Below, piece by piece: positions 6,798 through 62,040 of a stretch of DNA of 64,000 bases; position 1 is the stretch's first letter, and each line of letters opens with the position of its first letter. The notes beneath the pieces are model-generated. The model worked only from the letters and a program-made list of their open reading frames with translations, was not told the DNA's origin and made no database searches. The stretch lies in the IMG/VR virus record IMGVR_UViG_3300048609_000030, one strand, 5' to 3'. The position numbers and the translations under genes are program-made. The DNA is from an uncultured virus (IMG/VR IMGVR_UViG_3300048609_000030) (lineage: Duplodnaviria; Heunggongvirae; Uroviricota; Caudoviricetes).

Positions 6798-7492
6798 GAG
6801 GATCTAATGCCAGGACCGCAAGAAGGACCGACTAGGAGGTGTGATTGCTTGGGGTGCCTGTACCTCAAGTCAATTTCCCAGGGGCAACTCAACTACCCTC
6901 CCATGACCGAGGGACCGTGGTGGGCGTGTAGCCACCCGAGCTTGAGGGAGAGGTGCGTTGGACTCAGAACAACCACTGAGACTCCCGGATATTGCCCCTA
7001 CCTCCTTACACATGAGGAACGCCTCGCCGAACCAGGGTTGCTGACGGCGGTAACAGTGACGGCGTTCAAGGAGGATTGAAGAGCGAGATGAGCGTCGAGA
7101 AAACGCACCTGGAAATTGCTGCGCATCATCTACGGCAAGCTTCTGCAGAGTTGTTACTTGCGTCTGAGGTGTTGACCGATGACACTACACGCGGGGAGCT
7201 GGTCGGGATCAGTGCAACGATCGAGAGCATTGAGTGGCTAGTCGGTCGTTATGCACAAGCTGCGGGATAGATTCAGACTGTATTGTTGAGGAGGATCAAT
7301 GATCAGGTTCAATGTTGAAGGCGTACCGTCTACCCTCGCTACACTACTTCATGCTTGGAAAGGACGTGTGGAAGTCGTTGATCGATTTGGTCCAGGAGAT
7401 GTCAACGTAGAAATGCTAAATGAATATGCTGATGCTTTCCTAGACGCTGTTGAGGATGCTGGGCTGACGCACGTGATGTTGTAGGATACAGA

Positions 7493-7990
7493 ATGTTGCT
7501 TTTGTTGTCGATCTTCTTGGGTTTGTTGTTGGTAACCACCGCTGTTGAACGGTTGATTGCTATAAATGCACAAGTACGACAGTTCAGGCAGTACAAGGTA
7601 CTAGTAGCAGAGGATATCAGGCTGAATAGCGAGGCTGTATCGATAACCCCACGGGTCACGGATGTAGGAAACCGCAGTGTTCGCGTGGCAGTCTCGTTTC
7701 GTAACCAGACGGGATATCCAATCGTTCTCTGTGGCTTGATGATTGACTATCTTGTTGTGAAGGGCTCGATGGGCAACCTAGAGAGCATCGCACTCGACAA
7801 TAAGGAGCACGTCCTGCCAGCGAACCACCGTGACCCGTTGATAGTTTCTGCCACGTACTCACTACCAACAGGTGTCGACGTCGATGTCACAACGGGGCTA
7901 CGTGTTTCTGCGACGATGACTCGCCACCGCCTCAAATGGACAGCACTTACCGAGGCGTTTACGCAACTTGAAGTAAAGAGTATCCGATGA
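7493..7990 (+). CDS. Hypothetical membrane-anchored protein
   Basis: N-terminal hydrophobic helix then beta-rich domain. Confidence 0.55.
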   Translation: MLLLLSIFLGLLLVTTAVERLIAINAQVRQFRQYKVLVAEDIRLNSEAVSITPRVTDVGNRSVRVAVSFRNQTGYPIVLCGLMIDYLVVKGSMGNLESIALDNKEHVLPANHRDPLIVSATYSLPTGVDVDVTTGLRVSATMTRHRLKWTALTEAFTQLEVKSIR

Positions 7991-8823
7991 AGAATGCTAC
8001 CAAGATGGGATTAGCATGGCTGATGGACAAAGGTCTGAGCCCAGCCGATACAGTTGCGGCAGTGACCTACATGCTTGACCAAATCAGCAAACCAACAATG
8101 ATAGCCTCGTCCCCCAGAAGCCACATACCCTTCAGCTGCACAACCAAGACGTACGATCTGCTCTACGCTCGTTGGTTGGAAGGTGCTGAGAAACTAGTTC
8201 ACATGGCTAGGGTCAAGGAAGGAGATTTAGTACTTGACCTTTGCGGCGGTAGCGGCGTCGTATCGGAAGCCGCACTTCAAGCTGGTGCAGCGGTTGTTCT
8301 GCTCGACCTGAACCCACGAGCACGTCTCAACGTTGCTGCTATCAAGCAGAAGCTGCACGCACGACCAAAGCTGGCTGTTGTCCGAGGCCGTGCTGAAGAC
8401 GCTGTAAAGCTGCTTCATCAACCTGCAGCACAGGCGTGGTTGGCGCAGTACGACAAAGCGGGCACGGGAACCTTCGATAAGGTGATCTGCCGGCAGGCCA
8501 TCGGCTATCTCGATACGGAGAAGACATTCGAGGCGGTTGCGCAACTTCTTCGACCAGGTGGGATGTTTGTCTTCAACAACTTTATCAAGCCGCGTTGGCG
8601 CCTCTCTACCTATCAACACAACGAATCACGTTTTCTGGAAGCGTCTGCCTGTTTGGGGACACGTGTAGCACACCTTCAAGCGCGTTGGCCTATTGGTGTT
8701 GACGTAACAACGTTCCGATGGCACCCGCAAGATGTGTTGCTGCGTCAGCTGCGTACAAACTTCGTAGTCGAGTTGCGCAAACACAACCGATCGGTGTATT
8801 ACATCTGCCATAAACCGTTATGA
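7987..8823 (+). CDS. Class I SAM-dependent methyltransferase
   Basis: VLDLCGGSG motif I, LLDL, GRAED, FDKVIC, LLRPGG. Confidence 0.85.
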   Translation: MKNATKMGLAWLMDKGLSPADTVAAVTYMLDQISKPTMIASSPRSHIPFSCTTKTYDLLYARWLEGAEKLVHMARVKEGDLVLDLCGGSGVVSEAALQAGAAVVLLDLNPRARLNVAAIKQKLHARPKLAVVRGRAEDAVKLLHQPAAQAWLAQYDKAGTGTFDKVICRQAIGYLDTEKTFEAVAQLLRPGGMFVFNNFIKPRWRLSTYQHNESRFLEASACLGTRVAHLQARWPIGVDVTTFRWHPQDVLLRQLRTNFVVELRKHNRSVYYICHKPL

Positions 8824-8910
8824 CTGATGATCATTGTTTGATGTTACGTGCTGGGCTTTTCGTGCTGATTGTTGTTGTCGCGATACTGTTCGCAGATAAG
8901 TTGTGATGAG

Positions 8911-9777
<867 letters not shown>

Positions 9778-9792
9778 TGACTAGGAGCGTGC

Positions 9793-10314
9793 GTGAAGTA
9801 TCTCAGTGACGCGCGGTACCGTATGGCTCTTGTGAGAATGCGTCATCGCATCGCAACCGGCCTCATATTGAGCTACGAGGACAGTGAAACAATCGGCGAA
9901 AAGGGTACAAAGTGCTCTTGGGGTATGTGCTCAGAAGACGTCGAGCAGTGGCCAGATGCAGGTGATCACCTGTTTCCGGTAGTCTTCATGGATCGTGGAC
10001 GCGTCTCTGTTGTACGTCGCGCAGATCAACCGTGTCCTCTAGAAATCGCTGCACTTAGCAAGCCTTCTGAGGGTTGCTTCTACCGTTGTCGAGTGTTTCA
10101 ACAACATCTCGGTGCTTTGCCAACACGAGACGCCGCCTTACGACTCTACAACAGTCGTATTCAGGCTGTTGGTGATCACCTTGAAGTTTGTGGCTGCGAC
10201 AATGTTGGTGAGATAGTCGATCCTGTAGGTGGCAAGAAGAAGTTGCCTTGTCCTACGTGTCGCCGCGAAGACTATTCTGTGTGGCGGTTGTCTTATAAAA
10301 GAGAATGGACATGA
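9793..10314 (+). CDS. Cys-rich hypothetical protein
   Basis: AGGAG RBS, GTG start, CSWGMC/GCFYRC/CPTC. Confidence 0.6.
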   Translation: MKYLSDARYRMALVRMRHRIATGLILSYEDSETIGEKGTKCSWGMCSEDVEQWPDAGDHLFPVVFMDRGRVSVVRRADQPCPLEIAALSKPSEGCFYRCRVFQQHLGALPTRDAALRLYNSRIQAVGDHLEVCGCDNVGEIVDPVGGKKKLPCPTCRREDYSVWRLSYKREWT

Positions 10315-11075
10315 CCAAAGAACTACCACCGTGGCGACCTTCAACACTGGCAAAGATGACAATACCAGAGCTTCTACGCCTCAAACGAGCGTTAGAAGGC
10401 AGCGAAGGCTTGCTCGTCGACGGAGCGATCTACAAGTGTGTCGTCGACGTTCTTTGGGACCGCGCTGCAACCTCTGTGTCAAAGTGGCCAGTTACAAAAC
10501 ATGAGATGGGATACAACCTCATCAGCTTCTGCATAGACGCTGTGAAGTGGACTTGCCCAAAGTGTAAACAGGATAACTGGTTCGACCCGTGTCATTGTGG
10601 GCACCCAAGAGGCTATCCATTACTCGGACCTGACGATCCTTGGCATCAACCTGTACGCCGATTACGCCCTCGCAGCCGTGTTGCATCATCGCAAACACTT
10701 GGTGATTTTGCGGGTGATTGGGGTGCAGAATGGTATGAATGCTCTTGTGGAAACCGAGACGGTGATGCTTTCGGCAAGAGTCACGCAATCGGTCGTCAAT
10801 GGCGAGCTGAAAACGAACCTGGCGCCTGGCTGCGAAGCAATTGGCGTATAGCCAAAAAGCTCCACTTGCGAGACGCAAACAACAAGCCGTTCAATCCAAA
10901 GAAGCCTGTCTGGCTGATTTGCAGATACGCCGATGGGCTAGACGATCGTGAACACGCTCTCAACAGAGTGTATGCAGGAAGCGCGTCAAGTCGTGCTGAG
11001 TTTCACTGTATTTGTGGTAGCTCAACATGTGATGACAAGGCCAAACAAATTCCTGTTGACGACGATGAAATATGA
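10311..11075 (+). CDS. Cys-rich hypothetical protein (Zn-binding)
   Basis: CPKC, CHCG, CSCG, CICG motifs. Confidence 0.6.
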   Translation: MTKELPPWRPSTLAKMTIPELLRLKRALEGSEGLLVDGAIYKCVVDVLWDRAATSVSKWPVTKHEMGYNLISFCIDAVKWTCPKCKQDNWFDPCHCGHPRGYPLLGPDDPWHQPVRRLRPRSRVASSQTLGDFAGDWGAEWYECSCGNRDGDAFGKSHAIGRQWRAENEPGAWLRSNWRIAKKLHLRDANNKPFNPKKPVWLICRYADGLDDREHALNRVYAGSASSRAEFHCICGSSTCDDKAKQIPVDDDEI

Positions 11076-11575
11076 TACTGCTGATGTGGCCAGCAACTCA
11101 AGCTGACCAAGCAAGTCAGGAGATGAAGACTATGACCAACAGAGAATTCGCTGCGACCATCGAGGCCATCAAGGTTGAGCCGGACGAGGAGAAGCGCCAC
11201 TCGCTGCTAGGTGGATTGGTTGATGACTTTGGGTACATCGAGGCGTTGGTATGTGCCTTCCCCAAGAACGAGCTGAAAGCCTTGAAGGTTGAGGGCGAGT
11301 TGGTGCTCTGGAAGAGTAACTGGTGGAAACAGGTGGTGAAGCGGTGACTAACGAGAGCAAGCGTACTAGGGCTTGTAGAGCTTTCCTGGAAGGGTTAATG
11401 AGCGGTGCATCGTTCAACTATACAGCTGCACCAATACGGCTTCCTCGAATGCCTAAACTGGTCGTCACCAAACGCGCGCCTGACTATTTTCAGGTGGTCG
11501 GCGACGAGTTGCGAATTGCGTTAGCGGCAGTTGCAAAACAGCATCCCAAACGATAGTGTAATACGGAGCTGACGA

Positions 11576-13921
11576 ATGAAGACAAAAGACAAGTATGCAG
11601 TGTTTCCGCGTTTCACCGCAGGTGAAGCTGGTGCGGCCGATCGCGAGACAGCTCTTCACGTCTTACAGGCTGAACAAACACACATCGACAACGCTCTCAG
11701 TGGGGGACTTGGTGCCGCCGCGCGTGCCCAGGTAAAGCTACAAGGCACGCGGTTCATCGTCGTCTCTATGCGATCAGCCAAACAGGGATGGAGAGTCACT
11801 GACCTGATGGACCACACTCGTCACTTGTGGCCACACCGGCTCAAGTGTCCAACGTGTACGACAAGTTGTAAATGTCGGCACGGCAAAATCGTGCCGCATG
11901 ATCATGAGGGCACGCCATGCGACGGTGGTGACCACTACGTCGGGCACGAACTGGATGCAGCTATTATCTCGGCCGCTGAGACGTACGGTGCGGAGCAGCC
12001 GACCCAAAACGCTGACATCGTGATGAAAGCCTTGGGAAAAGGTGCAGCGTACCGCAACAAGCTCACCGAAATCGAACGAGAACGGCGTGAGCGAGAGGCC
12101 ACCCTACTCAACGCGGTAGGTGATGTGGCAATCATCAACGAACAGATCAAGGCGCTCGAAGACGAACAAGAGGTGTTGCAGAAGCGGATGAAGCAAGCGA
12201 AAAGCGGCAAAACGAAAGCCGAGCGATCAGAGCCTGATCCAGCTGACGTTCAACGTGCCCGCGCTATCAAGGAGTTGTTGAAGCCTCTTCGAGCACGACG
12301 CAAAGAGATCCGTACCCACGTTAGAAGCGCCGTCGTCCAGGACGAGATCAAGGTGATTCAGGATACGTACAAGGAGGAATATCGAGAAGCGCGCGCGAAG
12401 CGTGATGTGTATTGGGGCACAGGCGGAATCGTTGAAGAAGCAGCAGACCAAAGCTTCAAAACAGTCAAGAAGGGGCCTCCCAAGTTTGTTCCCTTCAGGG
12501 GACAAGGTGCAATTGCTGTACAGATTCAACATGGTGTTCCGTGGCGGGACCTGTTTGGCACCACCAACCAACAAGTCCGTATCGATCCGATAGATCCTAG
12601 CGCGTGGACTGGTTCTCGGGCTGTACGACGGCGTGCTTGCAAAACTGTGATGCATCTTCGTGTCTCGTCGGACGCGGACCGCAAACCAGTTTGGGCATCT
12701 TTTCCTTTCTGGATGCACCGCCCACCACCAGACCGCGCGGTCGTGAAAAAGATCAAGGCGATACGACGCCGCGACGGTCACCGTTTTCGTTGGAGTATTG
12801 TCGTCACGTACGATGTGCCCCGCGACGATGTTGTGCATACGGACGTACCAGACAACCGTGCCGAGTGGGTTGGAATCGATGTTGGGTGGCGCGCGTTCCG
12901 TGAGGACAAGGCTACGTCCCAAGATCGTCCGCAGTGGACAGAAGACGACAAGCTGACGCGAGAAGAAGGTGTTACCTACGCTACTGCGTGTCGGCTGGCT
13001 GACGTCGGACGGTTGGAAAAGGCATTCAATTTGTTGGCCTCGAATCCTAAAGCGTTGAAGCGCCTAAAGGCTAGGATGTCGGGGCCACACTCTATCCGTG
13101 TCGCTTGTTGGCACGGATCTGATGGCGCAAGTGGAGAGCTGGTCCTCGACCCTAGTTACAGTCGTGCTAGAAAGCGTATGGAGGACTTGGAGTCGACGAC
13201 GAAGAAAAACTTCAATGAATGCGTGCCCAAGATTGTTGCTTGGCTCGAACAGAATCCAGTCTCAAGTAACTTCCTAATCGCTGTCAAACCGCTTTTCCGT
13301 ACAGCAGGTGACTCTAAACCCGATGCTGCACCGTTTACTCAAGAAGTGATGACAGCTCGGCTCAAGGAGTGGGAGGCACCTTCACGCCTTCACGTGCTTC
13401 GAGACTTGTGGTATTACTTTGTGATCGACAATGATGAAGAGGTTTGGCAGGTGTTGAATGATTGGCATCACCAAGACAAACACCTCGTCGATTGGATACG
13501 AAGCCTGAAAAGGAAGGCACGCGGTCGGCGGCGAGAGTTGTACCGATTGTTCGCTGCTGAGATGGGCCGCAAGTACAAAATCTTCTACATCGAGGATTTT
13601 GAACTACCTGATGTCATAGAGAAGCCGCCTGTCGAGGAAGAGAAAGAACACCGTAACAAGCTGGCAGAGCAAAACCGCCGCACTGCTGGCGTCAGCGTCC
13701 TTCGTGACGCACTCAAGAACGTTGGTCGCACGTGTGTAGTAGAATACATTGCTGTAGCCGCCAACGAGACTACACGGCAGTGTGCAGAGTGTGGTAGCAT
13801 CGAGACGTGGGATCAGGCTAAATACGTAATGCACACTTGCAGTGGGTGTGGAGCAACGTGGGACCAAGACTTCAACGCCGGCAAGAACATCGGCGAACGT
13901 GGTGCCAGCTCCACTAATTAG
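11576..13921 (+). CDS. cas12: Type V CRISPR effector, TnpB-derived, Cas12m/V-U1-like, with N-terminal Zn-finger extension
   Basis: RuvC-I VGIDVGWR (D435), RuvC-II IEDF (E673), CAEC/CSGC Zn ribbon (C736-C758), RuvC-III WDQDFNAGKNI (D765); YG..P..YRNKLTEIER and GAIAVQIQ resemble V-U1 motifs; 176 bp upstream of a CRISPR array. Confidence 0.9.
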   Translation: MKTKDKYAVFPRFTAGEAGAADRETALHVLQAEQTHIDNALSGGLGAAARAQVKLQGTRFIVVSMRSAKQGWRVTDLMDHTRHLWPHRLKCPTCTTSCKCRHGKIVPHDHEGTPCDGGDHYVGHELDAAIISAAETYGAEQPTQNADIVMKALGKGAAYRNKLTEIERERREREATLLNAVGDVAIINEQIKALEDEQEVLQKRMKQAKSGKTKAERSEPDPADVQRARAIKELLKPLRARRKEIRTHVRSAVVQDEIKVIQDTYKEEYREARAKRDVYWGTGGIVEEAADQSFKTVKKGPPKFVPFRGQGAIAVQIQHGVPWRDLFGTTNQQVRIDPIDPSAWTGSRAVRRRACKTVMHLRVSSDADRKPVWASFPFWMHRPPPDRAVVKKIKAIRRRDGHRFRWSIVVTYDVPRDDVVHTDVPDNRAEWVGIDVGWRAFREDKATSQDRPQWTEDDKLTREEGVTYATACRLADVGRLEKAFNLLASNPKALKRLKARMSGPHSIRVACWHGSDGASGELVLDPSYSRARKRMEDLESTTKKNFNECVPKIVAWLEQNPVSSNFLIAVKPLFRTAGDSKPDAAPFTQEVMTARLKEWEAPSRLHVLRDLWYYFVIDNDEEVWQVLNDWHHQDKHLVDWIRSLKRKARGRRRELYRLFAAEMGRKYKIFYIEDFELPDVIEKPPVEEEKEHRNKLAEQNRRTAGVSVLRDALKNVGRTCVVEYIAVAANETTRQCAECGSIETWDQAKYVMHTCSGCGATWDQDFNAGKNIGERGASSTN

Positions 13922-14097
13922 CACCACCCTTTGATAATTGAATAGTTGTAGGCATCAACCGCTGCGAGCGGTTCGGTGATAGCGATATTGTGTGACAATG
14001 ATATCGACATCATACACACCGTACAAGCAGAGACCCATCGAACCGCTCGCATTAAGCACAGTAACAACGCGAAACTATTTCAGAAATAGCGCTGGCC
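13922..14097 (+). promoter_or_regulatory. CRISPR leader with 13-bp inverted repeat
   Basis: Non-coding and relatively AT-rich; TGCGAGCGGTTCG (13963-13975) / CGAACCGCTCGCA (14039-14051); next to the best-conserved repeats. Confidence 0.8.
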
Positions 14098-17000
14098 GGA
14101 TCAACTACTGCTCAACGCTTTACCTGTTGAGACGACACGGATCCGGTGGCGTTCGACGTGGACAAGCTGGATCAACTACTGCTCAACGCTTTACCTGTTG
14201 AGACAGATCATTGTCATCGGTATATGTACCCCATCCAAGGGATCAACTACTGCTCAACGCTTTACCTGTTGAGACACGTACGCATGCACGCCGATAGTCA
14301 CGTTGTCGCAGGGATCAACCACTGCTCAACGCTTTGCTTGTTGAGACGACCAGGGGCCAACAATGGCGTCGGCTTCGACCGAGGATCAACCACTGCTCAA
14401 CGCCTTACCTGTTGAGACCTTTGTATGTGTTGAGCATCCGCAGCTCGAAGACAGGGGATCAACCAGACAGAACCTCTTACCACTCACCCGCTGGGAGGTT
14501 GAGCGGGATCAACTGCTGCTCAACGCCTTACCTGTTGAGACGCAAACTACGGTCACGCTGGGCCGGCATTCGTCGTTGGGGATCAACCACTGCTCAACGC
14601 CTTACCTGTTGAGACTTGTCACGATCCTCGTGACCCCTGGCCCTTGGACCGAGGGATCAACCACTGCTCAACGCCTTACCTGTTGAGACGGGCAGCGCCG
14701 GGGAATTTGTCCCTGGTCTACCACACAGGATCAACCACTGCTCAACGCCTTACCTGTTGAGACGCGAAGCTGCTGGGCAAGTACGTCCTTCTTCATCGAG
14801 GATCAACCACTGCTCAACGCTTTACCTGTTGAGACTGGCGGAATGTGGATCTCTACCGCAATGTCCTCCATGGATCAACGTTGCTCAACGCTTTACTTGT
14901 TGAGACATGCTGAGTTGGGGCAAGCCACTTGACGCGAAGGTAGGATCAACTGCTGCTCAACGCCTTACCTGTTGAGACCTAGCGAGTTCATCACAGTGAA
15001 CCCGTCGATGAGGCGGGATCAACTGCTGCTCAACGCCTTACCTGTTGAGACGCTTCTGAGGTTGGGGGTTGGCGGTGAGTGACCAAGGGGATCAACTACT
15101 GCTCAACGCCTTACCTGTTGAGACGCGAGTTCACGGTCCTTCGCCACGAGCTGGCGCTTTACTTGTTGAGACGCGGCACGCGATACGTCGACGAGCGAGA
15201 CCGGATCAACCACTGCTCAACGCCTTACTTGTTGAGACCGACTATTCGACGGACCCTGTAGCTGAGTTGTCTCTAGATCAACTACTGCTCAACGCCTTAC
15301 TTGTTGAGACAAGACAGCAACGCGCCTGATCTCTACAACACCATCAAGATCAACTACTGCTTAACGCCTTACTGCCCTGTGGATCAACTACTGCTCAACG
15401 CTTTACCTGTTGAGACGTCGTAGGCGAACCTGCTACCAAGTCCAACCGATACAGGATCAACCGCTGCTCAACGCTTTACCTGTTGAGACATCTCCCATGT
15501 TCTGAAGTGCCGGACTGTGCAGTCGGAGGATCAACTACTGCTCAACGCTTTACCTGTTGAGACAGAAGAAGGGGACTATCTGCTCGAATGCATACGGCTC
15601 GGATCAACTACTGCTCAACGCTTTACTTGTTGAGACAGGGGACCTCCGCAGACACCTGCGCACCCTGACGACGGATCAACTACTGCTCAACGCCTTGTAT
15701 ATGTTGAGATCTCCTGTCTTGCGGCGTCGGCTGAAACAACTGTTCAACACCTTGTTGACTCAACGCTTTACTGTTGCTCAACGCTTTACCTGTTGAGACG
15801 TAGGATGCGCCGGTACTCGTCCATCTTGACATCGGGGATCACTGTTGCTCAACGCTTTACCTGTTGAGACGAGCGCATGAATTGGGTCGCCGAGTATTGG
15901 GGCGCCGGATCAACTTTACCTGTTGAAACATCGTCATGGACCAGCGCGGTTTCGGATCAAGCACTACTCAACGTTTTACCTGTTGAGACACCCAAAGGCT
16001 ACGCGGTCAGTCACTGCAAAAGCAGGGATCAACCACTGCTCAACGCCTTACTTGTTGAGACGCGATCGAGTAGGGCGGATCGGCGACGACTAGGTCGGAT
16101 CAACCACTGCTCAACGTTTTACTTGTTGAGACAGCCAACCCCAATCCCTCCAAAGGCGGACGACCGCAGGATCAACCACTGCTCAACGCCTTACTTGTTG
16201 AGACCAGCACGGTTTGGCGACGAGAAGACCGGCAGGGCCGAGGATCAACCACTGCTCAACGCCTTACTTGTTGAGACATCACCGAATCGCGCCCACCACT
16301 GCTCAACTGCTTTACCTGTTGAGACGATTGCCTCCTTGGCGGCTTTAAACTCCGACTGCTCAACGCTTTACCTGTTGAGACCCGAAAGAGGAGCAGCTAT
16401 CCGACACACTTCCCGACGGATCAACTACTGCTCAACGCCTTACCTGTTGAGATAGATGATCACACGCCGCAACCTCTAGGAGAGCGTGTAGATTAACCAC
16501 TGCTCAACGCCTTACCTGTTGAGACATGCAGAGTGAAGGGGATCGCCTCTGCGACACCTGTGGATCAACCACTGCTCAACGCCTTACCTGTTGAGACTAC
16601 GCGCGGCTCCTGCTGATCTAGTTGTCACACCAGATCAACTACTAGCAGGTATCGGTACGGTGGTGGATCAACAACTGCTCAACGCCCTTAAGTTGAGACG
16701 GCTCATCGAAGACGCACGTTCAACAACCACTCAACGTTCTATCTGTTGAGACACCTTGACGGGCTCGCAGCTAGTTAGTACCTGTCGAGATAAACAGTCA
16801 CAACTGCTCAACGTCCTACTAGTTGAGACCGGTTCCGCTCAGGTTGTGAGTGAAATTGAGAGGATCAACAACCACTCGACGCCCTACCTGTCGAGACACC
16901 AACCGCCGCACTCAAACGAGAGCCTGGCAGACGGACTACGAATCGAGATCGTCGTCAACTTTGAGCAAACAGCTGCTCGACGCTTTACAAGTCGAGATGA

Positions 17001-17168
17001 ATCGCATATAGGATTGACACTTGCTCGACAGCCTACAAGTCGAGACCAGCGCAAGAAACCGCGGCAGGTCGATAGGTTTGGGATCAACACTTACTCGACG
17101 GCTTAGGTCGAGACGACTCGTTGTTTCGCCGATGATTAATGCTTGCTCGACGGCTTACAAGTCGAGAA
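14098..17168 (+). CRISPR. CRISPR array, ~45-48 repeats including partial/degenerate copies; 36-nt repeat GGATCAACYACTGCTCAACGCYTTACCTGTTGAGAC; intact spacers mostly 35-39 nt
   Basis: Repeats read at 14098, 14169, 14240, 14312, 14383, 14506, 14580, 14653, 14728, 14800 ... 16562, 16665, 16862, 17011, 17081; unique spacers; degeneracy rises away from the cas gene; hairpin CTCAAC/GTTGAG. Confidence 0.98.
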
Positions 17169-17243
17169 TGTTGCGAGGCGGCCGTATCCACAACAGACTG
17201 ATGCCTACAACTATCCTACAACCTAGGAAAGGGTCCTTTATTC

Positions 17244-17870
17244 ATGAAGATAGTTGAACCGTCTGCCACACTACTTTGGGCAACGCCTGTCCCAGTTGCT
17301 ATCATCGAGCAAATTGGACGTGTCTGTTACAAGTCTGAAGACTGTATTACAGAGGAAAGTGCTGTTGCGTTTGTTCGTATGTTGCTTACGCGTAAGCACG
17401 AAGCGATGATAGAACACGCCTCGGCTTCGATCCATTTTGTAACTGATCGCGGCATCAGTCACGAGATTGTTAGGCATCGTTTAGCGTCATACGCACAGGA
17501 ATCGACGCGATACTGCAACTATTCTAAGGAGAAGTTCGGGCGTGAGATAACAGTAGTGCGTCCATCGTCGGTTGAAGGGGATTCCTCACGTAAAGCGGCG
17601 TGGGAACGTGCGTGCACGGATGCAGAGGCTGCATACTTTCGATTGCTTGACGCTGGTGTGACAGCCCAAATTGCGCGGTCAGTACTGCCAACCTGCCTCA
17701 AGACCGAGATTGTCATGACAACCAACCTCCGGGAGTGGCGGCACTTCCTCGGGCTCCGTCTAGCCAAGGACGCACATCCAGACATGCGACGTATCGCACG
17801 CCTTGCACAACAGATTTTGAGAGGATTAGCTCCTGTAGTCTTCGATCAGTTTGATGAAGTAGCTGAGTGA
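17244..17870 (+). CDS. thyX: FAD-dependent thymidylate synthase
   Basis: RVCYKS, HEAMIEH, RHRLASYAQESTRY (RHRx7S motif), ARSVLP, NLREWRHF, AHP. Confidence 0.95.
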   Translation: MKIVEPSATLLWATPVPVAIIEQIGRVCYKSEDCITEESAVAFVRMLLTRKHEAMIEHASASIHFVTDRGISHEIVRHRLASYAQESTRYCNYSKEKFGREITVVRPSSVEGDSSRKAAWERACTDAEAAYFRLLDAGVTAQIARSVLPTCLKTEIVMTTNLREWRHFLGLRLAKDAHPDMRRIARLAQQILRGLAPVVFDQFDEVAE

Positions 17871-17984
17871 TGTTGTACCCTACCCGCAAGGCTTATCTGT
17901 ACATCTACCGTCAATTGTCGTGGTACAACCCGCGTCGTTGGTGGCTCCGTTGGAAGTGGCGTAAACGATTGTGTCAAGAACAAC

Positions 17985-18530
17985 ATGAAGGCTGAAAAGG
18001 GACTAGGATCAGAGTTCTGGGAAGGTGCCGTTGCGCGTGCGGATCTTGCCGTAGAGAAATATGGACACCACGACACTGTTGAATTCACACTTTGTCGTTT
18101 GGTGGAAGAGGTTGGAGAACTAGTGCAAGCAGCAACCAGCAGGTCAAAGGAGCGTGACGTTGATCGCGGCCCTCGCATTCTTGATGAGGCCACAGACGTA
18201 GTCGCAATGGTGATTCGACTACTTCGCGAATGGCCTGAAGGGCGCATATCAGAACCGATTTTTGACATACCTACGCCAACTAGGGTTAAGAAGGTAGACA
18301 TCGTTTTCATAATCAACGGTGATAACGTTCCTGTAGACGCCGCCGCTGATACTTTCCTCGCAGTTGCGTGCACCCAAGCGCTTGTAAAATCAAACTACCA
18401 TACAGCGCCAGAAGGGTTTAAGTGGGTAGTAAGCGACGAGCGCGGTGTTGTACTCCCAATTGATACGAAGATTGAAAATTTTCATGATGGTGTGCGTCTT
18501 TGGTTGCATCTAAGAAGTACAAAACAGTAG
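17985..18530 (+). CDS. MazG-like NTP pyrophosphohydrolase with C-terminal extra domain
   Basis: LVEEVGELVQA...DEATDV (ExxE...ExxD). Confidence 0.75.
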   Translation: MKAEKGLGSEFWEGAVARADLAVEKYGHHDTVEFTLCRLVEEVGELVQAATSRSKERDVDRGPRILDEATDVVAMVIRLLREWPEGRISEPIFDIPTPTRVKKVDIVFIINGDNVPVDAAADTFLAVACTQALVKSNYHTAPEGFKWVVSDERGVVLPIDTKIENFHDGVRLWLHLRSTKQ

Positions 18531-19528
18531 CCCAAATAGTCAACAAGACTTGGTATACTGACGACGTGCTTGTTGCTACCTATCTAAGTAATCCTAGTCT
18601 CGGACATCAAGATGTCCACGCGGAGGCTGACCGACTCTTTCAGTCAGTCCCTACGACCACGTACGACAAGTGGTCGGTTACTGATGCCCACAACACCGCC
18701 AAGCTTCTTCTCTACTTCTACAAGAACCTAGCCTCTCCAAACGGTTGTGAAGAGTTTCTTTGTGTTGGTCAGACGTGTGTTGGGCCAGGTGCCAAGATCT
18801 GTAACCCGTCGACGCGGCTCAAACTGACCAACAGCCTCGGTCAGTACCTGTCGATGTGGCAGCCTGCGTACGAAGAGCAATACGTCGAAGATGTCATCGG
18901 GCCTGATCGGATGCTCTACTACGAGGCTCTTACACGCGAGGCTAAGGACGAGATACGAGGACGTGCTGCGTACTGGGCAGGCATGATACCTGTTTGGGAC
19001 GTCCGTCCCATCTCAGGTCAACCAGGCAAGTACGTGTCGTTTACGGTTGAGGGTTTGCTTGCCGTTGCGTTGCGTAACCCGCCGATAGGCTACACCGCAG
19101 CGTTCATGTCCTCAGCCACAAGCGTACTCTCGGCTTTGAACTCACTGCAGCAAGTCATCACCGAGAAGACGCCGGTATCGATTCGTAGCGATGTTCTTCG
19201 GGCGATGCGTCAGATAACAGGAACAGAGCCCCGCCTGATTTTGGCTAGTGAGATACCTGGTCCTTACACAAACAAGGAAAAGTCGAACATCTTCTACGGT
19301 GCACAGTCTGTGAAAGCTCACATGACGAGCCTTCCAGATCCACCGCCTGTCCCGCCGCCGATTCCAGATCCTTGGTTGCCGACAAAGAATGATGTCCCTG
19401 TTCCTGGTCCTTATCCACCTGATCATACAAAAACAAGTCGAAAGCGTGTGGCGCTGGCTGGTCTTGGTGTTGCTACAATGCTACTCTCAATTGGGACAAT
19501 GATATGGGCAACATCTACCGAAAAGTGA
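18500..19528 (+). CDS. Hypothetical protein with Pro-rich linker and C-terminal TM (start uncertain)
   Basis: PPPVPPPIP linker then VALAGLGVATMLLSIGTMIW. Confidence 0.6.
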   Translation: MVASKKYKTVAQIVNKTWYTDDVLVATYLSNPSLGHQDVHAEADRLFQSVPTTTYDKWSVTDAHNTAKLLLYFYKNLASPNGCEEFLCVGQTCVGPGAKICNPSTRLKLTNSLGQYLSMWQPAYEEQYVEDVIGPDRMLYYEALTREAKDEIRGRAAYWAGMIPVWDVRPISGQPGKYVSFTVEGLLAVALRNPPIGYTAAFMSSATSVLSALNSLQQVITEKTPVSIRSDVLRAMRQITGTEPRLILASEIPGPYTNKEKSNIFYGAQSVKAHMTSLPDPPPVPPPIPDPWLPTKNDVPVPGPYPPDHTKTSRKRVALAGLGVATMLLSIGTMIWATSTEK

Positions 19529-19953
19529 CAATCTTCGGTCTTACAACCGAAGCAAAGCGTCTTGGTGGTGTGACAAACATTGAGGCGCTTATCGACCACG
19601 GTGCGTCAATGACGGTGATATCAACACGCCTAGCACGACGCTTAAAGGGTAGACTCCTCAAGGGTATGAAAGTCCCTATCGAAGGGCGTAAGGTACCTGT
19701 AAAGCTTACCGCATTAACGCTTCATGCTGAGGGTTGTGGAGAGCGGCCTCTTGTTGTCGCTGTCGACGATGATCTTGTAGGTCGAGCTGGAACAAATCAT
19801 GTTGGAGCCCCGACCGAAATCATCCTCGGGCATGATTATCTAGAAGGAGAACGAGTCGGAGCGCGCTACACAGAACGTGGAGACGATGTCGTTTGTCACG
19901 CAGCGCCGCTTGCTAGTTTGGCGGGCGTAACTAAAACGCGGCGTCGTAAATAG
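19504..19953 (+). CDS. Retropepsin-like aspartic protease (atypical DHG)
   Basis: ALIDHGASMTVIS (cf. ALxDTGAxxTxIS) and IILGHDYL (cf. ILGxDxL). Confidence 0.7.
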   Translation: MGNIYRKVTIFGLTTEAKRLGGVTNIEALIDHGASMTVISTRLARRLKGRLLKGMKVPIEGRKVPVKLTALTLHAEGCGERPLVVAVDDDLVGRAGTNHVGAPTEIILGHDYLEGERVGARYTERGDDVVCHAAPLASLAGVTKTRRRK

Positions 19954-19990
19954 CGTGTTGGACACAGACCTTAGTAGCTTTTGAGCTGCC

Positions 19991-20530
19991 ATGTCGCCGG
20001 ATGAGAAGAAGGTCTATCGTGATTTTGGGAAGGATTGGATGGATGACGCTGAATACTTTCGGAGGCAGCGTGCTGTAGGACAAAGCTTCCAAGAGTGTGT
20101 CGCGACACACCTACGTGCTCAGGGTGTTGACCCAATCGTGTCTTACAATGACGGCTTTCGCGCCTCAGTAGCAGAGATCCAACGATACACCCGCGAGTCC
20201 AAAGACCTTCTGATCCGAGGGCACCACTTTGAGGTTAAGTCGCGAGCGGTACAGTTCACCTCTCCAGATGATTGGCCCCGCAATTACTGGCCGATGTTTC
20301 TTGACACTGTTGACGGACTCAACGCTAAGAACGTTGAACCGACCGGTTACATTTTTATCTCACAGAAGACGTACGCGATCATGGGCGTCCTGCTGAAGTC
20401 CATAAAAGACTGGTCAATTGAAAAGAGGTTCGACAACCAACGAGGCTTTGCGGAGAACTTTTACTGCATCCCTCGTAGTTGTGTGCTGAGTGAACCGGAG
20501 TTGGTTCAGGTTCTCCAAGCACTTCAATGA
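19991..20530 (+). CDS. PD-(D/E)XK-family nuclease-like protein
   Basis: DLLIRGHHFEVKSR. Confidence 0.65.
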   Translation: MSPDEKKVYRDFGKDWMDDAEYFRRQRAVGQSFQECVATHLRAQGVDPIVSYNDGFRASVAEIQRYTRESKDLLIRGHHFEVKSRAVQFTSPDDWPRNYWPMFLDTVDGLNAKNVEPTGYIFISQKTYAIMGVLLKSIKDWSIEKRFDNQRGFAENFYCIPRSCVLSEPELVQVLQALQ

Positions 20531-28028: not shown

Positions 28029-28703
28029 ATGGCACGTAACAAGCAACTCTCGTTCCTTCCACCCGACCTAATGGAGTACCTTACGGAACGTGCAAAGAGA
28101 CACTTCAGACGCCCCGCTGACGAGTTGTGCTCCATGCTGCAAAGCATGAAGGAAGGCACACTCTGCACTAAAAAAGAGCATGTAGCTGGTGTGCCAACGC
28201 CAATCGCGCACGCCGATCGTCGTCCTCTTCACGAGGTCAAAACAGTGGATAACCACGTGCCTGACCCGTCGACCAGTCGTGGTCCAAAGGCAACACAGAG
28301 TGGTTATTTAGGTGTGTACCGTTACGGCAAACGCTGGCAGGCACGAGTCACTGAAGACGGCGTTACAACGCGCCTTGGCGCCTACGATACACCCGAAGAA
28401 GCTGCAAAAGCTGTCGACGAACACTATCGAGAGATCGGACAAAGCCACATGGCGGCGTTCAACTTTCCGAAAAAGGGAGAACGTAGCTCTGTCGGGACGC
28501 AAGTTGACGATGTAACATGGGCCATGATACATCAAGGACCAAACATAGAGGATTTTGACATCTCAAACCTGCCGCCAGGACTTCGTCGGGGGCTTGCAAC
28601 TGCAGGTCTTCCGGTTTCTCGTCCGAAAGACGAAGACGTCAACAAGGACGGTCCTGACGAGGACTTCGATATAGAACCTGATATAGAACCCGATCTTCAA
28701 TAG
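28029..28703 (+). CDS. AP2-domain DNA-binding protein with possible N-terminal RHH
   Basis: SGYLGVYRYGKRWQARV..RLGAYDTPEEAAKAVD..NFP. Confidence 0.85.
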   Translation: MARNKQLSFLPPDLMEYLTERAKRHFRRPADELCSMLQSMKEGTLCTKKEHVAGVPTPIAHADRRPLHEVKTVDNHVPDPSTSRGPKATQSGYLGVYRYGKRWQARVTEDGVTTRLGAYDTPEEAAKAVDEHYREIGQSHMAAFNFPKKGERSSVGTQVDDVTWAMIHQGPNIEDFDISNLPPGLRRGLATAGLPVSRPKDEDVNKDGPDEDFDIEPDIEPDLQ

Positions 28704-34141: not shown

Positions 34142-35887
34142 CTACTCCCCGTAGAAGAATGAGTCACTAGCGTAGTAGAGACCGTTGCGCTTTTCGATCA
34201 AGCTTGTGGTTTTGAGTTTCGACAAGTAGTTCGCAAAGGTACTGCTCGTGGTGGATTGTCCTACCTGTTCGGCGACCGCATCCCGTGTTAGACCGGCTGG
34301 GTAGGCATCAATGAAGGTTCTGAGAATAGTCTTTGAGCTACCTGGAAGTCTAGGAGCCCAAAGCGCGTACAATTCTTCGGTGGTTGGTGGCGTCAAACTC
34401 GAACTCGTGGTTGATATTGCACTCAAACCCAACTCGGTAAGTTGAAATGCGCTTCCTCTGCCTTCGATGTGTCCACCTGTACGCAACGCTGAGAGGTAGT
34501 TCGCGAAGGTCGAGCTGCGCGGGCTGAATCCTGCCAAAGTAGATACTTGGTTGCGGGACAACGACTTGGGATGTAGCGCAGCCAACGCTTCGAGGATGCG
34601 CAACGGTCCGCGTCCAAGTTTGCTGGTTCCATTTGTGGACTTTGAACGAGGCGTTTGAGGTGGTTGAACAGCTCGTGGTGGTTGGGTGTTTCTCAACGGT
34701 TGGGGTACAGCTTTTGATTTGGGTACCACAGCACGGGCGGCGTCGATCGTAGAAGCCAACGCGACGAATGCGTTCTTCGTCTCGTCGTTCAGTTGTTGCC
34801 ACTTCGCAGCTGCTTTCTTTGTTACATCCTCGTACTTCTGTAGGACGTGTTTCAGACGTTCAACATCTTCAGCTTTGAGTACCGATACCTCGATACGCTC
34901 AACCTCAACAGTCTTTTGTTGCAGCAGTACTTCGAGCTGTTGGATCTTGCGGTCGCGCTCGATCACCTGTTGTCGTAGTTGCTTAGGGTCGTTTTGCTTC
35001 GCGGCCTCGATTGTTGAGGCCATCGCTTTCGAGATCTCGGTAAGGTCAACAGGCGCGAGTTGTTGCTGCTTTACTTGCTTACCCACGGTCGGTGTAGCTG
35101 ACGTATCGGCTGTTTTCTTCTGTCCGATCTTTACCTTTTGGTAGACCTCAAGCCACTGCGGTGACCAGACAATGGCTGTGCCCTGGGGAAGCTTAGCCAA
35201 GATCGACGCATCACCGCTTATGATGCCCTTCTCGGCAATCCATCCGTCGATTGCTTTACGTTCGTGCGGGCCAACTGTTTGGAATGCAAACAGACACTCA
35301 GTCTGGTTCAAGACGTCTTTGTGGACCTTCTGAGGACGTTGCGAAAGAAGTGAGATGCCGATTCCGTAGTTACGTCCAAGAAGAGCTAAATCGCTGACGG
35401 CGCCTAGAAGTCGTTCGTCACCACTGTGCATTTGTTGCGGAATGAAAAATTGACTTTCTTCTATCACGATGTGTAGCGGCGATTGTGCACGCTTCTTGCG
35501 ATGAAAAAGTTGCTCCGCAAAATCTGTTGCAAACTGCCGCCGCTGGTTCTTGCGGAAGTGAGAGACATCCAACACGATCGAAGTTCCAGTGTCGACAATG
35601 AAGTCGGCAACAATCGCACCGCCTGTCGGCTCTAATGGGATGTCACCTTGCGCGCCGCCAAGAACTGGAATCGGATAACCAGGTCCGGTGCCTGGTGTGC
35701 GGAGGCCGTACCAATTTCCCACAGGATCCAGGACGACGACTTGTGCACCAACGTCAAGCATCTCCTCGACCAGTTTGCCTGCCGCGAAGCTCTTTCCCGC
35801 GCCTCGACGCCCTATGAAGGCGAACGTCTGCGTGACCGCGTCAAGCGGCAGTGCAAGAGTCGCAGACAGGTGAAGCTTTCTCGTCAT
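34142..35887 (-). CDS. HerA/DUF87-like P-loop ATPase with coiled coil and two C-terminal wHTH repeats
   Basis: Walker A GRRGAGKS, VVLDPVG, Walker B IVIEES, GRNYGI..SQRP; repeated SSTFANYLS. Confidence 0.85.
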   Translation of the reverse strand: MTRKLHLSATLALPLDAVTQTFAFIGRRGAGKSFAAGKLVEEMLDVGAQVVVLDPVGNWYGLRTPGTGPGYPIPVLGGAQGDIPLEPTGGAIVADFIVDTGTSIVLDVSHFRKNQRRQFATDFAEQLFHRKKRAQSPLHIVIEESQFFIPQQMHSGDERLLGAVSDLALLGRNYGIGISLLSQRPQKVHKDVLNQTECLFAFQTVGPHERKAIDGWIAEKGIISGDASILAKLPQGTAIVWSPQWLEVYQKVKIGQKKTADTSATPTVGKQVKQQQLAPVDLTEISKAMASTIEAAKQNDPKQLRQQVIERDRKIQQLEVLLQQKTVEVERIEVSVLKAEDVERLKHVLQKYEDVTKKAAAKWQQLNDETKNAFVALASTIDAARAVVPKSKAVPQPLRNTQPPRAVQPPQTPRSKSTNGTSKLGRGPLRILEALAALHPKSLSRNQVSTLAGFSPRSSTFANYLSALRTGGHIEGRGSAFQLTELGLSAISTTSSSLTPPTTEELYALWAPRLPGSSKTILRTFIDAYPAGLTRDAVAEQVGQSTTSSTFANYLSKLKTTSLIEKRNGLYYASDSFFYGE

Positions 35888-37624: not shown

Positions 37625-38110
37625 CTAAGACGCGTCGAGACCGTCGTCTTCTTCGTCCTCGTCCTCATCTTCCTCCTCGACGTCGTCTTCGTCGAGTTCA
37701 TCGTCGTCGTCCTCTTCGGCGTCCTCGTCCTCGTCCTCCTCGTCGTCTTCCTCGTCGTCCTCGTCTTCATCAGCCTCAACCTCGACGGCGCGTCTGGGCG
37801 GCGGTGTGAAAGCGACCACGTTGTTTAATTCTTCCTGATCCTGATCCGGTTCCTCTTGTTTGCCGCGTCGTTTGCCTTTGGCTTTTGCTTTTGGCGGCTC
37901 AACTTTGGCTTTGGGCTTCTTCTTGGTTGCTTCCGGCCGAACACAATCAAGATCACGCACACGCACGATCAGGAAAGATTCAGAGACGCCTAGTACTTTG
38001 GCTGCTTTACGGATGGAACCCGCATTCGCCAAAGCAAAGTTTATCATGTCGGCTTCGGACTTTCGTAGGGTTTTCCAGTATGGAGCGTTCTCATTCCGTC
38101 TTTTGGGCAT
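37625..38110 (-). CDS. Fis-like HTH protein with long D/E tail
   Basis: INFALANAGSIRKAAKVLGVS; ~50-residue acidic C-terminus. Confidence 0.7.
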   Translation of the reverse strand: MPKRRNENAPYWKTLRKSEADMINFALANAGSIRKAAKVLGVSESFLIVRVRDLDCVRPEATKKKPKAKVEPPKAKAKGKRRGKQEEPDQDQEELNNVVAFTPPPRRAVEVEADEDEDDEEDDEEDEDEDAEEDDDDELDEDDVEEEDEDEDEEDDGLDAS

Positions 38111-38479
38111 CAAACTCCCCACTTACATCTGTTAACGGAGTAGCGCTTGTGTATTCGAGTGCCCGCAAGTGGATCGCTGCAAACACTGGAGTTGTTACAA
38201 CAGCGGTGATCGCAACTACGATCGGTGTCACCCAAAGCCGTCCAGGAAGACCTAAATACGGTAGATCCAGCCACCACCCGATCGCGAATGCTTCTCCGAG
38301 CCCTAACCAGAAGCCTAGACAGGCTGCACACATCATGAAACGGTCGAATTTTGGCGGGTAGTGGCTCCACAGGAAAGACGTGATCTTCGCCCTGCTACCC
38401 AGGTAATAGAGTGCTGACGCGATCAAGCCGTAGAGCACGGGCGTCATCGCGGACAACAAGAAGTAGGAGGCTTCCATTT

Positions 38480-61056: not shown

Positions 61057-62040
61057 ATGCAGCTTGATGACTTTCCCTACATCGCTGGCTATTTTGATGC
61101 TGAAGGTTGTGTTGGCCTTGCTTTTAGCACTGCTTGGTCTTGCTACGTGCAGTTCAAACAAACACAGCCCCAGGTCATTGCATGGTTGCTTCAACAATTC
61201 GACGGCAACACTTGGATCGAAGAACCTGAAGTTGGTCGACGACTTCTTCGTCTCAGATTCTGTTCGTTTGCTGAAACAACAAGATTTTTGCGTGCTATTG
61301 AACCGTTCTGCAAAGAGAAACATGAGCAAGTAGTAAAGGTACTAGAACAGTATCGACCAGACAGTACTACGAATTGGCGTCTCAAACGGGAATTGGAAGA
61401 TTTAAAGAAAGCTGTAAGTAGGCCGCTTATTCTGGAGAAACACCTAGCGGTTGCTGTCCACGATCCGAATCGTCTTTGTTCGGTAGTAGGGTGTACCAAG
61501 AAATCTTTCGCGCGTGGACGATGCTCGGTACACTACACTGCTGCACGTCTTAAAGGAGAGTTTACACCTCGAAAAAGACAAGAAGGCGTACCGTTTGTGT
61601 ATGACGTCGTGCCGACAGATGACGACCGCCGTTACTTAGCGGGATATTTTGACGGTGATGGTTGTGTATTGGTACACCGTGAGAAATACGGTTGGGGCAT
61701 CAAAGTGCATTTTGGACAAACACAACTGCACGCGATCAAGTTAATGCACACAATCTACCACGGGTCATTGTCGGAACGTCGTGTCAAACCTGGCTGCAAA
61801 CCTGTTTTCGATCTGCAAATTGTACAACGTGAGGCTGCTCTTGCCTTTCTACGTGACGTACAACCATATACTAAAGAGAAGCGCGATCAAATTGATATCG
61901 CCCTTGCTCAATATGATCCACGTGCTTCAAAAGAGACAGGGGTATTACTACAACAAACACTGACGGCGATGAAGAAACGTGAATACACAAAAAACGATCT
62001 TACTACCCTTGTCAACCGTGTTGTCCGAAACAGGGCGTAG
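61057..62040 (+). CDS. Two-domain LAGLIDADG homing endonuclease with central Zn finger
   Basis: YIAGYFDAEGCV and YLAGYFDGDGCV; CSVVGC..RGRCSVHY. Confidence 0.85.
   Translation: MQLDDFPYIAGYFDAEGCVGLAFSTAWSCYVQFKQTQPQVIAWLLQQFDGNTWIEEPEVGRRLLRLRFCSFAETTRFLRAIEPFCKEKHEQVVKVLEQYRPDSTTNWRLKRELEDLKKAVSRPLILEKHLAVAVHDPNRLCSVVGCTKKSFARGRCSVHYTAARLKGEFTPRKRQEGVPFVYDVVPTDDDRRYLAGYFDGDGCVLVHREKYGWGIKVHFGQTQLHAIKLMHTIYHGSLSERRVKPGCKPVFDLQIVQREAALAFLRDVQPYTKEKRDQIDIALAQYDPRASKETGVLLQQTLTAMKKREYTKNDLTTLVNRVVRNRA

Follow-up and report, generated by a model that had tools for sequence, protein, structure and literature searches.

The window analysed here, a 64-kb stretch of IMG/VR record IMGVR_UViG_3300048609_000030, contains a CRISPR (clusters of regularly interspaced short palindromic repeats) locus made up of a gene for a 781-amino-acid (aa) effector, an adjoining leader and a long array of 36-nucleotide (nt) repeats. 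The effector is a Cas12m protein of type V-M (formerly V-U1), and strong purifying selection acts on its gene. What is new at this locus is a small, long-branched lineage with two added protein segments, a weakened CRISPR RNA (crRNA) pseudoknot and an unusually long mosaic array with turnover of its spacers. Comparison with a near-identical element shows that the guides are renewed in nature. Taken as a whole, the locus is best read, with moderate confidence, as a type V-M system on a large phage-like element that binds and silences DNA under RNA guidance without cutting it, and whose guides are renewed. By analogy with characterised relatives, its most likely function would be RNA-guided binding and silencing of rival DNA.

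The Cas12m effector and its added segments

Sequence and fold comparisons agree on the identity of the effector. The PADLOC model Cas12u1 (V-U1, now V-M) is the best of 12 matches to the protein (E 6.6e-86), and phmmer searches against four solved Cas12m proteins return E values from 2.5e-68 to 5e-15. The best solved relative, PDB 23vw (577 aa, E 2.5e-68), is collinear with the window protein in two blocks, residues 120-443 with chain residues 7-324 and residues 507-772 with 326-567, and shares its RuvC triad of aspartate, glutamate and aspartate (D-E-D, all three aligned), its four-cysteine zinc ribbon and its signature motifs. The sole Pfam match of the protein is a Cas12f1-like TNB zinc ribbon at residues 711-772 (E 2.4e-7); NCBIfam contains no Cas12m model.

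An AlphaFold2 model built from a 77-sequence alignment (mean predicted local distance difference test score, pLDDT, 82; predicted template-modelling score 0.74) predicts a bilobed Cas12m fold with a split RuvC domain and an inserted TNB zinc ribbon, with pLDDT mostly above 90 across residues 128-781. Foldseek ranks Cas12m2 (8hhl, 8hio) and GoCas12m (8pm4) at the top, with a target-normalised template-modelling (TM) score of 0.80 (E 3.6e-29 for 8hhl). Cas12f and TnpB structures score at most 0.65, and CasPhi and CasLambda rank far below Cas12m (0.23-0.29 query-normalised, 0.25-0.33 target-normalised). Kinship of the protein with CasPhi or CasLambda was considered and dropped, the TM score being about 0.25 as against 0.80 for Cas12m. 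A preliminary description made from the DNA letters had placed the protein in the V-U1 lineage, reckoned it about 180 aa longer than usual and proposed a structural comparison with Cas12m and Cas12j. Its open reading frame (ORF), coordinates, motifs and numbering of D435, E673 and D765 are all correct, and the matches, the fold comparison and the alignments bear out both the lineage and the excess length.

The Cas12m family is large, since a phmmer search over 1.84 billion cluster representatives returns 1,153 proteins at E<=1e-30. Close relatives in that search are limited to P0001 (98% identity) and P0002 (49%, 694 aa); the rest share at most 40% identity and match in two or three stretches. 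The IMG/VR search returned no close relative of the 781-aa protein, nor was P0002 found there. A FastTree phylogeny of 77 proteins, a quick method that leaves 40 of the 74 inner branches without resolution, unites the window protein, P0001 and P0002 in a fully supported clade; its stem is long (0.83), and the clade is nested among D-E-D Cas12m proteins. A 23-kb metagenome contig (L002) carries a 781-aa version of the protein, 98% identical, and is collinear with window positions 7071-20525 at about 93% nucleotide identity. Between the two copies, the whole gene shows 75 synonymous and 14 non-synonymous differences, a non-synonymous to synonymous rate ratio (dN/dS) of 0.051.

In alignments, the surplus of roughly 180 residues falls at three sites. 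Relative to 23vw, the window protein has about 125 additional N-terminal residues, a 63-aa insert exactly at the 324/326 junction of the 23vw chain, and about 20 more residues near positions 565-590. The N-terminal extension contains a Cys/His cluster (C91, C94, C98, C100, H108, H110, C115, H124) that is invariant in all four 98%-identical sequences, and residues 1-111 are left unaligned by the best 150 phmmer matches, by 80 metagenome loci and by 52 viral loci. The insert separates RuvC strand 1 (IDVGWR) from the strand that follows it (IRVACW), lying exactly between the two, and is modelled with moderate to high confidence as three helices (residues 462-476, 480-486 and 491-501). The extension has a pLDDT below 50, which is to be expected where only two sequences are informative.

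Neither the N-terminal 125 aa nor the 63-aa insert has a Pfam match at E<=10 or a usable Atlas lead (scores at most 0.77), and neither has a stand-alone homolog of 68-219 aa, longer fused forms not having been searched separately. Both segments are lineage-specific, and comparison with L002 shows them to be translated and under purifying selection. The extension differs at 21 synonymous and 5 non-synonymous sites (dN/dS 0.061), and the insert at 8 and 2 (dN/dS 0.073). Coordinates of these segments and of the other features of the locus are collected in Table 1.

Table 1. Features of the Cas12m locus, in window coordinates
Feature	Positions	Strand	Basis and remarks
Shine-Dalgarno-like GGAG	11565..11568	+	Read from sequence; 7 nt 5' of the start codon
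cas12m gene, type V-M effector, 781 aa, ATG start	11576..13921	+	ORF, PADLOC, PDB match, AlphaFold2 model, dN/dS
N-terminal extension, residues 1-125, Cys/His-rich	11576..11950	+	Confined to four 98%-identical 781-aa sequences
RuvC-I Asp435 codon (IDVGWR)	12878..12880	+	Aligned to the matching Asp of PDB 23vw; D in 66/77 relatives
63-aa insert, residues 444-506, hairpin after RuvC strand 1	12905..13093	+	In the window protein, P0001 and P0002 only
RuvC-II Glu673 codon (YIEDF)	13592..13594	+	Aligned to 23vw Glu; E in 65/77 relatives
TNB zinc ribbon, C736/C739/C755/C758	13781..13849	+	Pfam PF07282; four Cys conserved in 72-77/77 relatives
RuvC-III Asp765 codon (WDQDFNA)	13868..13870	+	Aligned to 23vw Asp; D in 76/77 relatives
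Leader, 176 nt, gene to first repeat	13922..14097	+	Collinear with L002
Main CRISPR array, well-preserved 36-nt repeats, several variants, some truncated or partial units	14098..16597	+	Hamming and nhmmer scans
Degenerate trailer end of array	16598..17168	+	Homologous to the L002 trailer

Array, guide RNA and spacer turnover

The array begins directly after the leader, on the strand of the gene. A Hamming scan recovers 41 units at 14098-17168, and an nhmmer profile built from 27 clean copies gives 48 matches within the array, in agreement with the 45-48 repeats of the preliminary description; 36 of these matches span 30 or more of the 36 repeat positions, and about 12 are truncated or degenerate. 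The 24-nt 3' core of the repeat, with at most 3 mismatches allowed, occurs 31 times, always on the plus strand within the array and nowhere else in the 64 kb, where 100 shuffles give an expectation of 0. Spacers are mostly 35-38 nt long. ORFs called within the array, such as 15877-16455, are artefacts of reading through the repeats. The largest other arrays compared have 24 repeats (L114), 21 (L011) and about 21 (virus Rctr197k), counts that are limited by contig ends and flanks; the array described here is the longest of the set.

The locus is organised like those of its relatives. An array lies downstream of the gene on its strand in 53 of 111 loci, L002 and the Rctr197k locus (L001) among them, and in 34 of 52 IMG/VR loci, and the arrays of relatives consist of 36-nt repeats of one design ending in GAGAC. 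The repeat pattern itself has 0 matches in IMG/VR and 0 in 185,579 species genomes, and no host array with this repeat was found there. In silico, the 64 kb contains no anti-repeat outside the array that could mark a trans-activating CRISPR RNA (tracrRNA), and no Rfam match. A promoter and terminator scan gives counts equal to chance, with no promoter-like site above chance in the leader. PADLOC detects no cas1, cas2, cas4 or any other cas gene among the 104 ORFs of at least 70 aa in the window, as the preliminary description had noted for cas1/2/4. That description compared the lack of adaptation genes with that of compact phage effectors; in PMC11013384, V-U-type loci are described as generally without them, so that the feature is typical of V-U systems at large and not a phage trait.

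Stem positions in the repeats were taken as for PmCas12m in a preprint (bioRxiv 10.64898/2026.03.26.714355), in which pseudoknot stem I pairs positions -28..-26 with -17..-15. Over a 32-repeat alignment, 86.9% of cells in stems I and II are paired, as against 61.9% after shuffling (0 of 500 shuffles reach the observed value) and 30-44% in slid controls, and all 10 stem pairs have changed on both sides, a pattern of covariation. Stem II keeps all 6 of its 6 pairs in the window repeat, whose 3' half ends in GAGAC, and in the trailer it shifts from CTCAAC/GTTGAG to CTCGAC/GTCGAG with pairing preserved. Stem I is complete, with 3 of 3 core pairs, in 21 of 27 other loci and in a variant repeat block of L002; of the six exceptions, at least L027 and L074 are read as register shifts of the alignment.

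Comparison of the window with L002 shows spacer turnover. The L002 array has 27 units. Its leader-side repeats (units 1-6 and 8) and those of the window (units 1-3) are one identical variant, as expected if every acquisition copies the first repeat, and yet they flank different spacers. The two arrays have in common a degenerate trailer with two identical or near-identical spacers and one diverged mid-array spacer; all other spacers differ. Among the Logan contigs of four DNA sequencing runs, only two variants occur, the window type in a soil run and the L002 type in groundwater runs of two studies; no RNA run is listed as containing the element. A near-identical pair of elements with almost wholly different leader-side guides makes a clean natural case for studying array renewal without cas1 and cas2.

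The two types also differ in small ways within and around the array. A seven-unit block in L002 (9542-10018) has a distinct repeat with 9 mismatches to the consensus, in which stem II is kept and stem I is better than in the main repeat. The block resembles a cassette brought in from another array by recombination. The window array includes fused and truncated units. Right after its trailer lies a ThyX gene (ORF 17244-17870) that is missing from the L002 type, where 652 nt (window 17214-17867) are replaced by 74 letters (L002 10541-10662). At window positions 11096-11102, between two small ORFs upstream of cas12m, the L002 type has 413 extra letters.

Proposed function and competing explanations

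In the proposed mechanism, the array would be transcribed from the leader adjoining the gene. Cas12m would then cut the transcript within the repeats, releasing crRNAs in which a repeat-derived 5' handle (a hairpin of 6-7 bp that ends in GAGAC) precedes a 3' guide, with no tracrRNA, a processing step suggested by characterised relatives and by the anatomy of the repeat. The resulting complex would bind double-stranded DNA (dsDNA) flanked by a protospacer-adjacent motif (PAM) and block transcription or replication of the target without cutting, by analogy with all tested Cas12m proteins, including those with a D-E-D triad. Likely targets, on the same analogy, would be rival phages or plasmids and possibly host genes. 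Guides would probably be renewed by adaptation proteins acting in trans together with recombination between arrays.

Several observations weigh against this view of the locus. In the four repeat variants of the window that were compared, only one or two of the three core positions of stem I pair, a departure from a feature of the family. Truncation or degeneration affects many of the repeats, a possible sign of partial decay. Both the window and the L002 arrays carry unique spacers between the shared anchor spacers, and simple acquisition at the leader end does not explain these. No capsid, portal, tail or clear terminase gene is detected in the 64 kb, and no protospacer for the array was found among phages, plasmids, the window or the fetched loci. 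Finally, the intact D-E-D triad, together with two added segments that have no characterised counterpart, leaves target cleavage a small share of the probability.

Some of these points modify the proposal. The unique spacers between anchors, the variant block of L002 and the fused and truncated units together indicate that recombination between arrays must contribute to renewal as well. Because stem I is weakened, crRNA recognition may differ in this lineage; a link between the weakened stem and the added protein segments is a matter of speculation. The search for targets covered phage and plasmid records and the fetched loci at the level of the arrays and their spacers, IMG/VR and metagenomes not having been scanned with individual spacers. 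Compared with 50,697 phage records, the window array gives only four 31-nt matches at E 0.9, which is chance level; it has no match among 72,556 plasmids, and the L002 array has none among the phages. A comparison of 60 spacers with the window and the fetched loci yielded nothing longer than a 22-nt match with 2 mismatches or an exact match of 17 nt, again at chance level, with no self-target. A PAM cannot be inferred, because no targets were found.

The first alternative is a cleavage-competent Cas12m, its RuvC domain cutting target DNA in the manner of CasPhi from huge phages, perhaps helped by the insert or the N-terminal Cys/His segment. D435, E673 and D765 are invariant in all four 98%-identical sequences, the 63-aa insert directly follows the RuvC-I strand, and Omura et al. 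2023 (PMC10442227), who divide Cas12m into four clades by triad, speculate that D-E-D clades might hydrolyse DNA. The preliminary description likewise took D-E-D to set this copy apart as possibly cleavage-competent. That argument is weak. D-E-D is the majority state, present in 65 of 77 aligned relatives, and because it is so common in the family it carries little information. In Bigelyte et al. 2024 (PMC11013384), eight Cas12m proteins were tested (four D-E-D, two H-D-D and two N-D-D), of which six showed PAM-dependent binding and none cleaved dsDNA; since the tested D-E-D proteins bind without cutting, the triad is no evidence of cleavage here. Omura et al. also report that conversion of H-D-D to D-E-D in Cas12m2 restored no cutting, and the closest solved relative, 23vw, is itself D-E-D and deposited as a 'DNA-binding protein'. 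Cleavage is therefore unlikely.

Binding without cutting is compatible with protection and with guide processing in the characterised proteins. As described in PMC11013384, GoCas12m shielded Escherichia coli against both plasmids and phages, TfCas12m hindered transformation by plasmids, and MsCas12m carrying D274A was still able to process precursor crRNA.

The second alternative concerns the carrier, which could be a large mobile element, plasmid-like or of another sort, or else a cellular island, making the locus an ordinary mobile-element or bacterial V-M system. The absence of capsid, portal, tail and clear terminase genes from 64 kb favours such an origin, as do the nature of the lone 'terminase-like' match, which is a HerA/FtsK-type ATPase, and the lack of any IMG/VR match to the gene or the repeat in our search. 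It is opposed by strong matches to phage-only PHROG families of unknown function (phrog_7313, 1.3e-59; phrog_13834, 7.4e-55; phrog_24212, 1.6e-30) and by the gene content of the window, which comprises about 110 ORFs, most of them short, at 52.7% G+C, with a dense population of small ORFans. The few known families comprise ThyX, nucleoside deoxyribosyltransferase, NUDIX, a DFP-like domain, methyltransferases, an endolysin-like M23 peptidase, R2K ATP-grasp, a dual-specificity phosphatase, LAGLIDADG and HNH homing endonucleases and a HerA-type ATPase; of these, ThyX, the deoxyribosyltransferase, NUDIX, the homing endonucleases and the M23 gene count against a non-viral carrier. The window contains no tRNA and no housekeeping gene.

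A non-viral carrier is thus improbable, and a very large phage is the likely one. The window protein is recorded on a 77,433-nt contig, and because P0162, a member of the same cluster with 98% identity, is encoded on a 243,706-nt contig, the element must be far larger than the window. The phage setting claimed in the preliminary description gains from the PHROG matches and loses from the lack of any structural phage gene in the window, so that a phage context is plausible, not proven. The HerA/FtsK-type ATPase (34142-35887, minus strand, 581 aa) matches the PHROG family 'terminase large subunit' at 2.4e-19 as well as HerA models, with a phage 'hera helicase' as its best phage match (36% identity); it could serve an unusual virion as packaging ATPase, or be a defence-type HerA.

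The third alternative regards the array as a decaying or recombining relic and the effector as retooled for fixed regulation, for example the silencing of a few host or phage genes, in place of adaptive exclusion. The numerous truncated, fused and degenerate units and several repeat variants fit such a history, as do the window's lack of adaptation genes, the spacers without matches to known phages or plasmids, and the weak stem I. The comparison with L002 argues the other way. Leader-side spacers are wholly different between variants that are about 93% identical, and each array starts with identical intact repeats, which points to recent gain and not only to loss; the gene, moreover, is under strong purifying selection. 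Decay to a fixed regulator is accordingly quite doubtful. The last alternative, an incidental TnpB or IS605-type transposon nuclease lying beside a CRISPR array, is effectively refuted: a match to NCBIfam NF040570 at 28.8 bits, far under its cut-off of 100, and a weak match to a PHROG 'transposase' family are set against best models and folds that are those of Cas12m, the adjacency of gene and array with the same repeat architecture in dozens of relatives, and a size and REC insertions as in Cas12m.

Related systems and neighbouring features

Cas12m proteins are compact natural DNA binders that do not cut, and they already serve in base editing, epigenome editing and genetic circuits. With its two selected add-ons and its pared-down guide scaffold, the natural variant described here could reveal what the protein-RNA interface can do without, or by what route new functions come to be grafted on. 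A bolder and highly tentative proposal is that the workings of the effector have changed in this small lineage on very large phage-like elements: a zinc-binding-type N-terminal domain and a helical RuvC insert would have arisen together with the loss of the pseudoknot, so that guides are recognised in another way or the protein has gained an activity, for instance cleavage regained or a host factor recruited, in a system whose array of more than 40 spacers is actively refilled in nature without adaptation genes of its own.

Among solved proteins, MmCas12m2 (8hhl/8hio) and GoCas12m (8pm4) resemble the window protein in fold (TM 0.80) and in belonging to tracrRNA-free systems with a 36-nt repeat and no adaptation genes. 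They differ in their H-D-D triads, their length of about 600 aa and their location on bacterial chromosomes or plasmids, and share only about 18-20% identity with the window protein in the structural alignment. PMC10442227 describes pseudoknot stem I as intact in both systems.

Cas12j (CasPhi) and Cas12l (CasLambda) are single-effector type V systems of large phages that lack adaptation genes and are thought to target rival elements; they are active nucleases. These proteins belong to other Cas12 lineages than the effector described here (TM about 0.25 to its model).

Phage-borne Cas12m relatives are already on record, and the 'new phage clade' of the preliminary description was an overstatement. 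Cas12m relatives occur on at least 52 IMG/VR contigs, the largest about 200 kb, and 34 of these contigs also have an array, with 24 repeats at most. A preprint of September 2026 (bioRxiv 10.64898/2026.09.14.751636) presents MvCas12m of myxophage MV-1 as the first phage Cas12m. As described there, MvCas12m is likewise phage-borne, with a D-E-D triad and an adjoining array, with neither cas1/2/4 nor a tracrRNA, and with no targets identified; it has 610 aa and 8 spacers, against 781 aa and about 36-48 units here, a comparison made from the description and not from sequence. Phage-borne Cas12m proteins that keep the D-E-D triad are thus frequent in public databases, and the triad is no sign of cutting. 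Supplementary Table S1 of PMC11013384, with 134 Cas12m variants, or the supplements of the myxophage preprint might list a closer relative.

Virus Rctr197k (KX853510.1), a 197-kb tailed-virus record, offers a further parallel. An intact Cas12m relative of 622 aa is encoded there, with about 21 repeats of 36 nt after it on the same strand, and the array, like that of the window, is homogeneous on the leader side with drifting distal repeats. The Rctr197k protein shares 27.7% identity with the window protein and lacks both the N-terminal extension and the insert, and stem I, as read from the virus's repeat, pairs at 3 of 3 core positions. The effector ORF (L001 5935-7803, locus tag Rctr197k_108) is annotated only as a misc_feature 'similar to transposase', together with a CRISPR annotation, and a second mini-array (618-873) lies beside another 'transposase-like protein' in the same record.

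A few further features of the window were noted. The ORF preceding cas12m stops 20 nt upstream of it. Just upstream, at 9793-11075, are two Cys-rich ORFs (173 and 256 aa) with several CxxC motifs and no match in Pfam, PHROGs, PADLOC or NCBIfam. A 302-aa ORF at 8869-9777 contains a run of about 17 Asp codons (an ACG/GAC-type triplet repeat, with a tandem repeat at 9269-9319) that would encode poly-aspartate, and it matches no family. Another low-complexity segment stems from a long imperfect CGT/12-nt tandem repeat (37642-37765) within the minus-strand ORF 37625-38122. Homing endonuclease genes of the LAGLIDADG type (61057-62040) and the HNH type (28029-28703) are also present, as is typical of large phage genomes.

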